28,751 nucleotides of DNA from the IMG/VR virus record IMGVR_UViG_2531839664_000032; one strand, 5' to 3'. Below are positions 12,001 to 18,000 of this stretch, one piece after another. How positions within the stretch are numbered: position 1 is the stretch's first letter; each line of letters begins with the position of its first letter. The stretch comes from a virus. Lineage: Duplodnaviria; Heunggongvirae; Uroviricota; Caudoviricetes. The position numbers are program-made.

Positions 12001-15000
12001 CGCACCTGTTTCTCCTTTCGGTCCCTGTGGGCCTGCCGGGCCTGCCGCACCGGTATCTCCCTTTGGACCCTGTGGACCTGCGCTTCCCGTCAGACCGGTA
12101 TCTCCCCGCTCTCCCCTGTCGCCTTTCGGCCCCTGCGGACCTGCCGGACCTGTATCTCCTCTCGGTCCCCGTTCACCGGTTGCCCCTTTGGCCCGGGAGG
12201 CCCCACCACGGTGGGGATTCTGTTTACGGCTTCTTCCGCCGCTATCCTGCTTTGTTCCGCTGACTGTGCGCTTTCTGCTGACTCCCGGGCTTTTTCTGTT
12301 GCGGTCGTTGCATCCCTGGCTGCATTACCGGCTGCACTTTCTGCCGTCTTTTTTGACAACTCAGCATCTGCTGCACTTTGTGATGACTCACTGGCTTTTT
12401 GAGCAGCCGCAGAGGCCGAGGACGAGGACGCCTCCTCTGACTGCTTTGCAGCGGCTGCACTTTCTGCCGCCTGCCGGGCTGACTCCGATGCATCCCCTGC
12501 TGAAGTGTCAGCATTTGCAGCGCTCTCTTCTGCCTGACTGGCTGATATGCCGGCATTCCTCGCGGACGTCTCCGCCTCTCCGGCATTCTTCTTCGCCTCC
12601 TCAGCGTGACGCGCCGCTTCTTCCACCATCAGTTCAAAACGACGCAGTGCCTCCGGCCGGACGTCATCCTCCGACATGGCACCGAGAAAATCATTCAGCG
12701 TACCGGGTTGAGAATCTTCATACACGGTGATGGTCCCGGCATGTGACGGCGGGAATCCTTCCACCAACAGAATGACGCTGTACTGACCGTACTCAACGTC
12801 CATGCTGTAACGACCGGCTTCATCCGGATTTTCAGAGGCCACCGTGTTCACCACCACCGTGCTGCTGGTCCGTCTGGCTTTCAGTTGAATGGTGCAGTTC
12901 TCTACCGGTTTTCCTGTGCCGTCTTTCAGCACACCTGAAATCTTTACTGCCATATTCACCCCACAAAAAAGCCCGCCTGAACCGGCGGGCTGTCATAACA
13001 CTGTGTTACCTGGCTAATCAGAATTTATAGCCGACACCCACGATGAAGCCGTCAGTGCGCCAGTCGCCACTGCCGGAACCTTCATAAGCAAGGTCAATAA
13101 CCACCGTCTCTACGGGACTGAACTGAATCCCGGCATTCCAGGCCGGCGACAGATGACGCGCAGTATGGCCATCACTGGCGGTGGTGGTCTCCTTCACATA
13201 CCCCGGTTTCACTTCATCATGCCGGTAATCCTGAACACTGTCAGACCAGCGGGTGTACGCCATCCCGGCCATGCCATAGAGACTGACCCGCTCACTGAGC
13301 TGCCAGACAGGGCCGGCCATCAGACTGACATAACGACCGCGCAGACTTTCATGATGGAAGGTATTTTCACCCGTCTTCATCGTGTCACTTTTCTTCACCG
13401 ATGCATAACTCAGCGCGACAATGTAGTGGTCAAGTAATATTGGCCACGGTTTTACAGTAAAAATGGTATCTGTTCTCTGACTCTTCCGGCGTCAGCCCAC
13501 CGTTATAATGGTGAGGTCTGACGCTGTTGTAGTAGTTCAATATGTAATCATTAATTTGCTGCCGGGCCTCGTCCTTGCCTGCGTAACCATTCGTTGGCAC
13601 CCATTCTGTTTTCAGACTGCGGAAGAAGCGTTCCATGGGGCTGTTATCCCAGCAGTTTCCCCGCCGACTGACGCTTTGATTTATTCTGCAACGCCAGAGA
13701 AGTTGTTGATATTTAAGGCCTGTATACTGGCTTCCCTGGTCGCTATGGAACACGACATCCCGGGGTTGGCCACGCGTCTCATAGGCCATCCGCAGGGCAC
13801 TGCTTATCAGTGCGGTATCGGCATGCGCTGACAGACTCCAGCCGATAACCCTGCGGGCAAAAAGATCCATAACAACCGCCAGATAGCACCAGCGATTTCC
13901 TGCCCAGAGATACGTAATATCTCCACACCATACCCGGTCTGGCTCCGGTACTGCGAACTGACGCTCAAGCAGATTCGGCAGGCTGGTATGCTCCTGACGG
14001 GCATTTTTATACTGATGTTTTCCGGGCTGACAACTGCTCAGGTTCAGATATTTCATCAGACGTCCGGCACGGTAACGGCTCATCGGGACGCCGTTTTGAG
14101 TCAGCATTTCAGCCAGAGTGCGCGCGCCCGCAGAGCCCCGACTTTGGTTCCACGCCCGGCGTATTTCGCTGCACAACCTGACTCGTGCCGGATTAACCGT
14201 ATCGCGTCGTTTTCGCCAGTACCGGTAACTGCTGCGGTGTATTTCCAGAGCAGAACACAGGCTGACAACCGTGTGGCTGTCACTTAGTCTGGCGGCTATC
14301 GTGAACCGTTCAGCGAGTCGGACATTAAGAGCGCGGTAGCCTTTTTTAATATCGTATTTTGTTCCTCCAGACGGCGAACTTGCTTTTCCAGCTCGCGGAT
14401 ACGTTGCTGGTCTGGAGTAATGGGTGTGGCAGAGGGCGTAATACCCTGGCGCTCTCGCCTGAGCTGGCGTACCCAGCTCTCAAGCGTGGTTGAACCGACA
14501 TTCATCGCTTCACTGGCCTGTCGATATGAGTAGCCCTTATCAACAATCAGCTGTGCACATTCCAGCCTGAACTCAGGGGTGAAGGTTCGTTTGGTTTTCT
14601 TGTTCATTAAGTCACCTGTTTTGTGTTGTGGTGAGAATATCACCTTTCATCAGGTGGCCAAATTTAGTGTGCCACTACAAGGCCACAAAATCCTGAAACC
14701 GGGATGCCTCACTCTTCCGTCTGACCACCGCGGTTTCATGCACCCAGGCATGGCCCCAGCCCAGCCATTCGCGGGTTTCCCTGTCACGGCCAATCACGTA
14801 CATTCCCAGCAGATCATCCAGGCCCCCGCCGTCAATCCCCACCGTCACCACATCAGCGCGCTGCAGGATATCGTCCAGGCTGACGCGCCTGCCCTGCTGC
14901 TCCCAGAAATCCGCGCCCGCCCAGCGGTCAGAACGCAGGGCAAGACCGATTTCCACATTGGCGTGTTTTGACATGAAGCCACGAAATTTTACGGCACAGC

Positions 15001-18000
15001 GGAATAACAAACAAATCATCAGCCTTTGTTCCCATCCCTCCCAGTCCATGACCAATGATGTGATGCGGATCATCTGCCTGATTACCGCACGTCATGCATT
15101 TCTGCGTTTTTACCCAGCGCGTGTATACAGGCATCTCTTCCCGTTGTGGTTTCTGGCGCTGGAGATACTGAGCCGGTGACTCCGGATCAACGGCAATGCT
15201 GACCACCGTCTTTTCCTGTGGCGGGTTTTGCTGGTGGGCGTGAGGCAGCGGCGCAAGATTTTTTGTGCGCTGCTTCAGTATGATGGTGGCGGTCTGCTCT
15301 CCCGGTACGATGTCGCTTTCACGGTACACTGAGCGGATTTTTTCCGCACGCAACCCCAGCGAACGACGTAATACCGCTTCCGGTAGCGCGTCCGCCACCT
15401 GATTGCGGACCGCCCACCAGGATAATTCAGCCAGAGATAATTCACGCTCCTGCGTACCGCTTATTGCGTGACCGATGACGTCAATCATCCATGCTGACAG
15501 GTTTTGATGAGCAAGTTGCTCGAGTGATTCGGATGTCTGGTCACGCAGCTGGTTGTCGCAGTGCCAGCACAACACCATTGCGCCGGTACCATAACGGTGA
15601 ATAACGGTTTCACTGTGATGATAGTCACCATGAGGCCACTGGCAGGATTTGACATGACGCAACAGCCAGTCAGACAGTGCACCAGCGCCACCAACAGCAC
15701 GAATCACACGCTCATTGCTGAAAAACGGCAGTAATGATTTATCCTCCGCCAGCGGCTGGCGAACGGCAGGGACGATGCCGGACGGCAGACCGCGCATGCT
15801 TTTCGGTTCCGGCTCCACAAGCACTCGAGGGTTATGGAATACCTGCATGGATTCACGGCCTGGTTTAAGGACCACCAACCCAAGTTCCGGTACCGGAACA
15901 GGTCGAAGTAATACCCGCACGTTACCTCCAGATGCGTTGCTGGAATGTGCGGGACGGACGCGGTGGGCGCTCGGAGTACGGCAGCCTGACGTAGATTATC
16001 CAGTGACGATAATCGAGGCTGAGGGCTTTCCTAAACTCATACCCACGTCTGCGGTAGTTCTGAATCAGCCATTCGGCCTGTTCTTCAGTGCATGGGGCGT
16101 GCCGGAACCAGTCAGATTTGAATGCATGAGAACGCCGCCCGTGCCTGCTGGCAAAGACGGCTGAATTATCAGAATTGTGTAGTCTGGAATTTTGCGCCAT
16201 CGGCTTTCTCCGGTGGCACAGTGTTACTCAACAGGGGTTCAGCCCTGCGCTGAATTGTAGATGAATTCACTAATCTTCAAAAGCAGAAAAACCAGCCTTA
16301 ATCCCAGCTTCTTTCAGAGACGGCAACGATGTGACAAATTCATTTGCACGCAAAATAAAACCATCCGTCACAAGCCCATCCACAAAATGAATTAACGCAG
16401 CTCCACTCTTCCTTTGTTGAGACTGTAAACATTTAATACGGCAGTGGCTGACAATAGCGCCCTTCTCAACGCGCACAGTATAGAGGCCATCTTCACTAAA
16501 AATTTCACGTAATTCTTCGATTCTCATCAACAGAATCCTTCCAGATAAATAGCACTCCCCTGTTCGGGGTCCATCCCTCTTCTCCCTACGCGCTACTTAA
16601 GTATTTTTGATTCTATTCCGGCGCCGTCCGGAACTTCAAACGCGTTGAAAATAAAAACAAAAACCCGCCGAAGCGGGTTAAGTGCGGGTGCGTTGAGGAT
16701 GCCTGACACATCAGAGGTGGCGAGGGATTTCTCCCCCGCCTGGTCTCTTACTCCTCAGGTTCGTAAGCTGTGAAGACAGCGACCTCCGTCTGGCCGGTTC
16801 GGATTCGTACCTCGCAGAGGTCTTTCCTCGTTACCAGTGCCGTCACTATGACGGTTAAACAGATGACGATCAGGGCGATTAACATCGCCTTTTGCTGCTT
16901 CATAGCCTGCTTCTCCTTGACCTTTCGGTCCGTAAGAGGCAATCTATATGTGACGAGCATATAGGGGCCTCACTTCGATTTATAGTCGGGTGGGGCTTTT
17001 ATCTATCTGCCGTTGGTGTTCATGCCCGAGGCAGATAGCCTCAAGCACCCGCAGCAATCCTACTTAACTCTGCCGTTACAGCAAACCGTTTTCGCCCGAT
17101 ATGGGAATTCCCATATCGGAATGAATTCAGTTCACCTGGCGAGGCTTAGCGTACAATTTTTTCCGTTTTGTGAGCTGCCCCTACATGCCGCTGGCGCGGC
17201 ATCCGGAAAAAGAATCCACGTCCTGAAGGACGAGGATGTCAAGTGCCTTTCCTGGTCCAGCCATATTTTTTGAATGCAGGCGCCGCTTCATCGGTTTGTA
17301 GCCATTCTGCAAATCGACGGGTTTCATCATTTGCATCCTGACGTACTGTAATGTTCATATCACGCCATATCACGTAGTCTGGCGCTATTTCCACGACATC
17401 ACCAATTTCTGGATTACTGGCTGCCCAGTCAGCCCAGGTTATCCAGACATCTGCTCCAGGCTGATTCTCAAGAGCCTTACGTGCAGTTCCGCTATTGGGC
17501 GCATATAAAATAATATTTTTTCGGATTGCGGCGACAGTTTCTATATTCCCTTTACGTCCGGCAATATCTTCCCAGACGCCAGTGCCTGATGTATTACTGG
17601 TACCACCACCATCATTAACAATTACGCCAATCCCAGGTCTGGTCAGGTCGTCAATACTCCGGATATTTTTAGGATTACCTTTCTTTACCAGTAAAATACT
17701 TTTTCGCAGATAAAGAGGCTGAATATCTTTTTCACTGAAGCTGTCTTTATGGTCCCGAATGATAGCCAGAGCAGATTGTTCTGATGCGCCAAACAAGATA
17801 TCTGCATTTTTTTTGGCATCTTCATTCCATTTGTTCTGTGGGCCGTAATGAACGTTCACTATAATACCTGTTTTTTCGGCATAAAGTTTGGCTGCATCAA
17901 GCAAGGCTGTATGCGGGCCACCAGGACCATACAGATTGATATCAGCATAAGCAGCAGAAGACAGGAATATTAAAAAACCTGCCATTATGTTCCTCATAAA

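Follow-up and report, generated by a model that had tools for sequence, protein, structure and literature searches.

We analyzed a 28,751-nucleotide (nt) stretch of viral DNA (IMG/VR record IMGVR_UViG_2531839664_000032; the whole stretch is hereafter called the window) that contains a complete insertion sequence (IS) of the IS3 family lying between remnants of phage genes. In a comparison with 5,426 complete Escherichia coli genomes, the 3.1 kb surrounding this IS scar was 100% identical to nine complete O121(:H19) chromosomes from Shiga-toxin-producing strains of E. coli (STEC). The Prokaryotic Genome Annotation Pipeline (PGAP) annotation of strain 16-9255, which we used for the O121 copy, places the region in a lambdoid prophage adjoining yciE and a truncated ompW gene. 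We assign a probability of roughly 70% to the reading that the scar in this ompW prophage comprises a gap that grew stepwise in association with the IS (gap B) and a separate gap without any IS (gap A). An earlier note on this DNA had proposed a single IS-mediated deletion of 25–30 kb. The amount of DNA lost and the presence of an IS at the scar bear this out, but the loss is divided between two gaps, took several steps and, at gap A, left no IS.

The scar is made up of the following features, in window coordinates:
13018–13421, minus strand: 3′ fragment of lom (Ail/Lom outer-membrane β-barrel), recognized by Pfam and by comparison with strain OkiPb01683
13422–14679, minus strand: complete IS3-family IS of exactly 1258 bp, boundaries read from the sequence
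14680–14987, minus strand: internal relic of the terminase large-subunit gene terL, 308 bp, corresponding to nt 912–1219 of 1662 (TerL residues 305–406)
14987–14988: blunt junction left by a deletion, without an IS, where the terL relic meets a DUF968 gene, located by three-way comparison with both parental sequences
14988–15920, minus strand: DUF968 gene without its last 123 nt (Pfam DUF968, profile positions 1–138 of 171)

Gap sizes were measured on the full-length ompW prophage of O55:H7 strain CB9615 (NC_013941.1, 1578000–1627000; locus L013):
L013 10530–19931: gap A, 9,402 bp, between the DUF968 3′ end and terL nt 911, with no IS
L013 20240–40620: gap B, IS-bridged, 20,381 bp including two ISEc31 copies, or 17.86 kb of phage DNA

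Gap A took with it rusA, Q, tRNA-Ile, tRNA-Arg, TerB′, DUF3927 and the SASA esterase gene, followed by the holin, lysozyme and lysis protein (Rz-like) genes, PerC, YlcI, HNH′, terS and terL nt 1–911. Gap B removed terL nt 1220–1662, the capsid, portal, connector and tail genes, the tape measure gene, J and lom nt 1–218. Sizing the loss against this closest full-length relative, a comparison of the kind that the earlier note had suggested, gave a total of approximately 27.3 kb of phage DNA gone, and the O121 prophage thus lacks Q, both tRNA genes, the lysis cassette, terS, the packaging region, a functional terL, the head and tail genes and J of CB9615. The two flanks of the IS map 20.4 kb apart in CB9615 and approximately 19.5 kb apart in O157 PV15-279; this separation in intact relatives, together with the lack of a target-site duplication, marks the locus as a deletion scar.

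The terL relic decides against a single event. It is 100% identical to terL of OkiPb01683, O55:H7 CB9615 and O157:H7 PV15-279, and PGAP labels it “terminase large subunit, missing N- and C-terminus”. Because it intervenes between the IS and the early gene, part of the late region survives, and early DNA is not linked to late-end DNA by the IS directly; the earlier note was therefore right that Q and the lysis, head and tail genes are missing between the flanks, but not that the whole late region is. A model in which one IS-mediated deletion of 25–30 kb brought the early region straight up against the tail-fibre/effector end does fit the total loss of approximately 27 kb and the missing duplication. 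Since one deletion cannot leave an internal terL island, which here is joined bluntly and without an IS to DUF968, and since intermediate states exist in other genomes, we regard this model as refuted and its probability as very small.

The flank described in the earlier note as a 3′-truncated early-late junction gene turned out to be something else. The 132-amino-acid (aa) open reading frame (ORF) at 14675–15073 is a terL/DUF968 chimera, with DUF968 sequence starting only at 14988. Residues 30–131 (102 residues) are identical to TerL 305–406, and the first 29 residues come from the 3′ region of DUF968 read out of frame. A Pfam scan of this ORF returned no family; its nature was shown by terL DNA and protein identity. 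The neighbouring DUF968 ORF (14928–15920, 330 aa) runs into the terL relic for 19 out-of-frame codons. Of the first 311 residues of the intact 351-aa CB9615 protein, 310 are identical in the truncated version, after which the tails diverge. Both products, the ORF of 132 aa and the “DUF968” protein of 330 aa, should accordingly be annotated as chimeras made by deletion. The DUF968 breakpoint (window 14988–15010, minus strand) falls inside a C-terminal Cys/His motif, which reads ...IPLCRK/CHNELH in the intact protein, with the slash marking the break. The chimeric protein probably lacks the function of this motif.

On the other side of the IS, lom is 5′-truncated, as previously noted: nt 1–218, including the signal peptide, are gone, and codons from approximately 75 to 207 are kept. 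The fragment matched positions 84–199 of the 199-position Pfam Ail_Lom profile (E 2e-33), and PGAP calls it “incomplete; missing N-terminus”. It aligned with intact OkiPb01683 lom from nt 219 at 99% identity, with 4 mismatches. A gapped identity of 93.8% had prompted the idea that the lom/tail-fibre flank came from a foreign prophage through IS-IS recombination. This idea was rejected: with repeat-region gaps set aside, identity to OkiPb was 98.3%, and lom had only the 4 mismatches.

The lom/IS, IS/terL and terL/DUF968 junctions were each contiguous in the same nine O121 genomes and in no others of the 5,426. IS elements present in several copies are well known for causing misjoins, and a collapsed IS repeat could in principle have falsely joined distant regions. 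But the three junctions are identical in nine complete genomes that were assembled separately in different laboratories, and the terL/DUF968 junction involves no repeat. Because all three recur in nine independently assembled chromosomes, we rule out an assembly join, an explanation that the earlier note had itself offered as a refutation and that now has practically no probability left.

We then considered the ends of the IS, where no target-site duplication was present. The flanking trinucleotides are CAA (...GCGCGACAA) on one side and AGG (AGGCCACAAA...; AGGCCAC...) on the other, so the identical direct repeats that would have indicated a simple insertion are lacking, in line with the earlier note. 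Other copies do show the 3-bp duplication that characterizes simple insertions of IS3-family elements. The identical IS is flanked by TCA/TCA in gpG of strain 13E0767 and by ACC/ACC in tssF of strain TW10828, and the ISEc31 variant in the capsid gene of CB9615 is flanked by CCA/CCA, with a single CCA in the uninterrupted gene. The missing duplication is meaningful because the identical IS makes 3-bp duplications on simple insertion elsewhere, and it is what is expected for a rearrangement junction. The lom/IS junction has a 2-nt coincidence (TG), and the IS/terL junction has no microhomology.

Prophages of other strains retain states that bear on how gap B grew. In CB9615, the IS variant is simply inserted 106 nt into the capsid gene, and all head and tail genes are present. 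OkiPb-type prophages, from bovine and human strains (OkiPb01680, OkiPb01683, OkiPb01700, 2014C-3061 and 13E0780, and 13E0725 at least on the terL side), carry a 100%-identical copy of the O121 IS in the same orientation. On one side of it terL is intact and 106 nt of the capsid gene remain; on the other are the last 1.27 kb of J, followed by intact lom. CB9615 and OkiPb thus share the terL-side IS junction (flank CCATCCCGATCC...) and differ on the other side, which lies in the capsid gene in the former and in J in the latter. One junction kept and the other moved is the signature of a one-sided, IS-anchored deletion, here of 15.7 kb on the CB9615 scale and 17.3 kb on the PV15-279 scale.

The O121 prophage goes beyond the OkiPb state by a further 610 bp on the terL side and approximately 1.56 kb on the J/lom side, and all DNA kept by O121 is a subset of that kept by OkiPb. 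Between the two, the IS and the terL relic are each 100% identical and the early region 99.8% identical, in the same order and orientation. The arithmetic of gap B closes, with 15,689 + 610 + 1,563 bp giving approximately 17,860 bp.

In the history that we propose, an ISEc31-type IS3-family element would first have entered the 5′ end of the major capsid gene, a state kept in CB9615 with its CCA duplication. A deletion anchored at one end of the IS, running approximately 15.7 kb from the capsid gene into J, would then have produced the state seen in OkiPb01683, 2014C-3061, 13E0780 and related strains. In the O121 lineage, deletions at each end of the IS would have removed 610 bp on the terL side and approximately 1.56 kb on the J/lom side, leaving the IS still intact between the unrelated flanks CAA and AGG. 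Gap A would be a separate event of blunt, illegitimate end joining that left no IS behind.

The most likely agent of the gap-B deletions, as we infer it, is the transposase of the IS itself, acting at the IS ends and probably helped by the IS-excision enhancer (IEE) of the host. In O121:H19, iee sits on an SpLE1-like element and its product excises IS600, another IS3-family element (PMC9397093). Events that depend on IEE include deletions next to an IS, with sizes from a few nt up to over 40 kb (PMC9943667). Loss of gap A through IS excision with flanking loss is possible, if unsupported. An IEE origin of gap A is not indicated, because IEE joins by microhomology and comparison of the 14987/14988 junction with both parental sequences revealed none.

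Several points weigh against this history. No intermediate between the OkiPb and O121 states was present among the 5,426 complete genomes, so that the sequence and count of the final steps are conjectural. A deletion anchored at an IS end yields the same end product as a second IS copy that inserted and then recombined with the first. The involvement of IEE rests on the literature, the window itself holding no iee. The IS variants at the capsid site differ at 92 of 1258 positions (from nt 19 to nt 1246), but their flanks differ at only 3 of 2500 nt; divergence in situ cannot explain 92 differences within the IS beside 3 in 2.5 kb of flank. With an IS only 92.7% identical beside a near-identical flank, CB9615 may not be the literal ancestor of OkiPb. 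The shared capsid site may instead be a hot spot or reflect IS-on-IS targeting, with CB9615 as a parallel.

The recombination route deserves consideration as an alternative, although we think it unlikely. Two directly repeated IS copies, one at terL nt 1219 and the other at lom nt 218, would have recombined, deleting the interval and leaving one hybrid copy. This predicts exactly what is seen, an intact IS with non-matching flanks that each retain one half of a different duplication. CB9615 has two ISEc31 copies bracketing its head-tail module, one in the capsid gene and the other between J and lom, and O55:H7 strain DEC5D has two copies side by side. New IS copies do arise, because O121 chromosomes show up to nine places matching the IS. 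However, the two CB9615 copies are in inverted orientation, so recombination between them would invert the module rather than delete it, and no complete genome had a simple insertion at either O121 breakpoint. Moreover, one IS already suffices to account for most of the gap in the OkiPb state, where the terL-side junction is that of a simple insertion.

In DEC5D, terL nt 1–356 are followed by ISEc31, an inverted IS fragment, ISEc31 again and then intact lom. The two full copies (locus L005, 9418–12308) are in direct orientation and the fragment between them is a 375-bp inverted internal piece of the IS. On the lom side, the junction coincides with the site of the ISEc31 copy between J and lom in CB9615, but with the IS inverted. 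DEC5D keeps less terL than O121, and therefore the two lineages were eroded independently.

The O121 IS could also have been gained independently of the OkiPb and CB9615 insertions, at a preferred target or through an IS-bearing segment that spread between lambdoid prophages. Two IS variants 7% divergent from each other occupy the same capsid site, and several further genomes carry the IS in or beside J or lom. Strain MS 145-7 has the identical IS next to a different lom allele and gpFI, with a lom breakpoint 8 nt from that of O121. Against an independent gain, the IS, terL relic and early region match OkiPb in sequence, order and orientation to the extent given above. In addition, neither O121 IS junction coincides with a junction of any other lineage. 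We judge this explanation improbable and retain stepwise growth of gap B from the OkiPb state.

Observations on other prophages touch on target choice. The capsid-site variants of CB9615 (L012 5943–7200) and OkiPb01683 (L004 20442–21699) are inserted at the identical nucleotide and in the same orientation. In the commensal strain MS 145-7 (L011 4415–6341; also in TK3889), the prophage is lambda-like but unrelated, and there the identical IS bridges a truncated gpFI and a lom that has lost its 5′ part and belongs to a very different allele. The same-site capsid variants and the MS 145-7 lom breakpoint hint at target preference or IS-on-IS targeting. That the repeated association of such elements with the same late-region spots of lambdoid prophages is non-chance, arising through “IS succession” or at a true hot spot, is a tentative idea that we hold to be doubtful. 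In IS succession, an IS may insert precisely against the end of a resident relative, which is then lost. If the association is non-chance, ISEc31-type elements would systematically disable the morphogenesis genes of lambdoid prophages.

The IS itself has the layout expected of its family, and its boundaries, inverted repeats, frameshift site and Pfam domains all agree with the earlier description of a complete 1258-bp IS3-family element:
14654–14679: left inverted repeat, upstream of the transposase, outer end TGTAGTGG on the minus strand, from alignment of the IS ends
13422–13447: right inverted repeat, from the same alignment
14296–14607, minus strand: orfA, encoding an HTH_Tnp_1 DNA-binding protein, from the ORF list, Pfam and the PGAP coding sequence start
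13430–14176, minus strand: orfB, encoding the DDE catalytic part with HTH_21, rve and rve_3 (Pfam rve E 6e-27)
14341–14347, minus strand: slippery heptamer A AAA AAG, at which a −1 frameshift fuses orfA to orfB, at IS position 333, in the overlap

Both ends of the IS start with TGTAGTGG; 20 of the 26 repeat positions match, and the outer 8 nt are identical. The imperfect terminal inverted repeats ending in 5′-TG...CA-3′, the DDE transposase with an integrase core, and the fusion of orfA and orfB through an A AAA AAG-type heptamer are all features of the IS3 family. PGAP annotates the transposase as WP_085968792.1, IS3-family, with a programmed frameshift and a coding sequence joined at the heptamer. 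An Rfam match to isrC (“Hfq binding RNA”, RF01387; 150 bits; window 14489–14611, minus strand) falls wholly within the 5′ region of orfA, that is, within IS3-family transposase sequence.

Full-length copies of the IS were found in 1,649 of the 5,426 complete genomes. The best match was at least 99% identical in 938 records, and copies with 100% identity were present in many E. coli genomes. Like the element here, ISEc31 is 1258 bp long, has TGTAGTGG ends and the orfA/orfB layout, and makes a 3-bp duplication. By contrast, the copies in CB9615 and DEC5D that PGAP names ISEc31 differ from it at 92 of 1258 positions, an identity of 92.7% that falls short of the at least 95% DNA identity used by convention for the same element, and PGAP gives the IS here only as “IS3 family”. 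ISCfr6 is listed with six copies in O121:H19 strain 51104 (PMC9397093), and the IS here may be that element, ISCfr6 being an unconfirmed candidate name. We found no sequence-level description of ISCfr6 or ISEc31 in the literature on them.

We took Q, the lysis, terminase and head/tail genes and an intact int as the marks of a functional lambdoid prophage, a set that the O121 prophage lacks; relative to CB9615, the late genes in question are absent between 13018 and 15920. The integrase gene is broken as well:
27622–28751, plus strand: int of this prophage, the integrase gene, disabled by the loss of 1 nt near 27749, from alignment to the intact int of OkiPb01683

The alignment to OkiPb01683 int contains one gap, at which the reading frame switches, and PGAP calls the gene “frameshifted” in 16-9255. 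Retention of the early region and cargo, claimed in the earlier note, is confirmed by the presence of cI/cro, O/P, paa, hokD/sok and dicB and of nleA, nleH1-2, nleF, espM1 and nleG. The predicted inability of the prophage to make particles likewise holds, since terS, a working terL and the head and tail genes are gone. On its gene content, the O121 locus is a fixed, predicted non-inducible island of immunity and replication genes, paa, hokD/sok, dicB and type III secretion system (T3SS) effectors.

In the PGAP annotation of 16-9255, one end of the prophage carries the effector genes espM1, nleG, nleF, nleH1-2 and nleA, and the other is the early region with DUF968, hokD, paa, P, O, cro, cI, ydfC, dicB, exo, xis and int. 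Next to hokD lies a match to the sok antitoxin RNA (RF01794, 104 bits; window 16901–17050, minus strand), and the type I toxin-antitoxin pair thus appears to be whole. Relative to 16-9255, the window lacks 1,266 bp, an IS600 copy at approximately 23184 that separates ydfC from its neighbour, and is 198 bp longer at 11988–12176, in the collagen-like repeats of the tail-fibre gene. PGAP calls this tail-fibre gene frameshifted.

Between nleH1-2 and nleA, at approximately 7373–8432 (L001 9072–10131), lie a degraded tyrosine integrase gene and C-terminal tail-fibre fragments. This debris seems to be what is left where two prophages fused at an earlier time at the effector end, and it is also found in CB9615, DEC5D and OkiPb01683. 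OkiPb01683 contains a second int-xis-exo set (L004 34606–38001) beyond its effector end and the ompW fragment, and this set is approximately 96% identical to that of O121; the arrangement suggests tandem lambdoid prophages at ompW.

The locus can be set beside several known systems. The ompW prophage of CB9615 has the same site and gene order as that of O121, an early region 99.8% identical, an identical terL segment, and nleH1-2 and nleF. Unlike O121, it keeps rusA, Q, the tRNA genes, the lysis genes, terS, terL, the head and tail genes and J, and its IS copies are simple insertions of the 92.7% variant. Its counterpart in O157:H7 Sakai is Sp9, which is reportedly still able to excise and be packaged with help; the O121 copy has no terminase, packaging region or working int. 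The K-12 cryptic prophages Qin and Rac are crippled lambdoid prophages, similar to the O121 prophage in their degree of decay; the T3SS effectors carried by O121 set it apart.

In enterohaemorrhagic E. coli (EHEC), lambdoid prophages are as a rule defective and marked by deletions and inserted IS elements, as in the “defective prophage pool” of Sakai (PMC2669165). The Sakai prophages resemble that of O121 in their frameshifts, deletions, IS insertions and retained cargo (dicB, hokD, ydfC and effectors), and the loss of the late region in O121 is more extreme than in most of them. Deletions associated with IS629 and IS600 in EHEC prophages, and IS-adjacent deletions promoted by IEE, also involve an IS3-family orfA/orfB frameshift element and a scar without duplication, in a host lineage that carries iee; the deletions here are of sizes within the reported span, which starts at a few nt and exceeds 40 kb (Kusumoto et al. 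2011, via PMC9943667; PMC9397093). Unlike in those cases, the IS here is related to ISEc31 rather than being IS629 or IS600, the role of IEE is putative, and gap A has neither IS nor microhomology. Across O121:H19 lineages L1 and L3, the ompW prophage has been reported as conserved (PMC8767318). A literature search combining O121 H19, prophage and ompW returned nothing.

The event is of a known kind, a textbook case of STEC prophage decay without novelty, and its significance beyond bookkeeping is small. The three scar junctions could serve as lineage markers. Mobilization of nleA, nleH1-2, nleF, espM1, nleG and paa by the prophage's own functions is unlikely in O121:H19. For the conversion of an effector prophage into a fixed island in a major STEC lineage, the locus offers unusually clear intermediates in public genomes.

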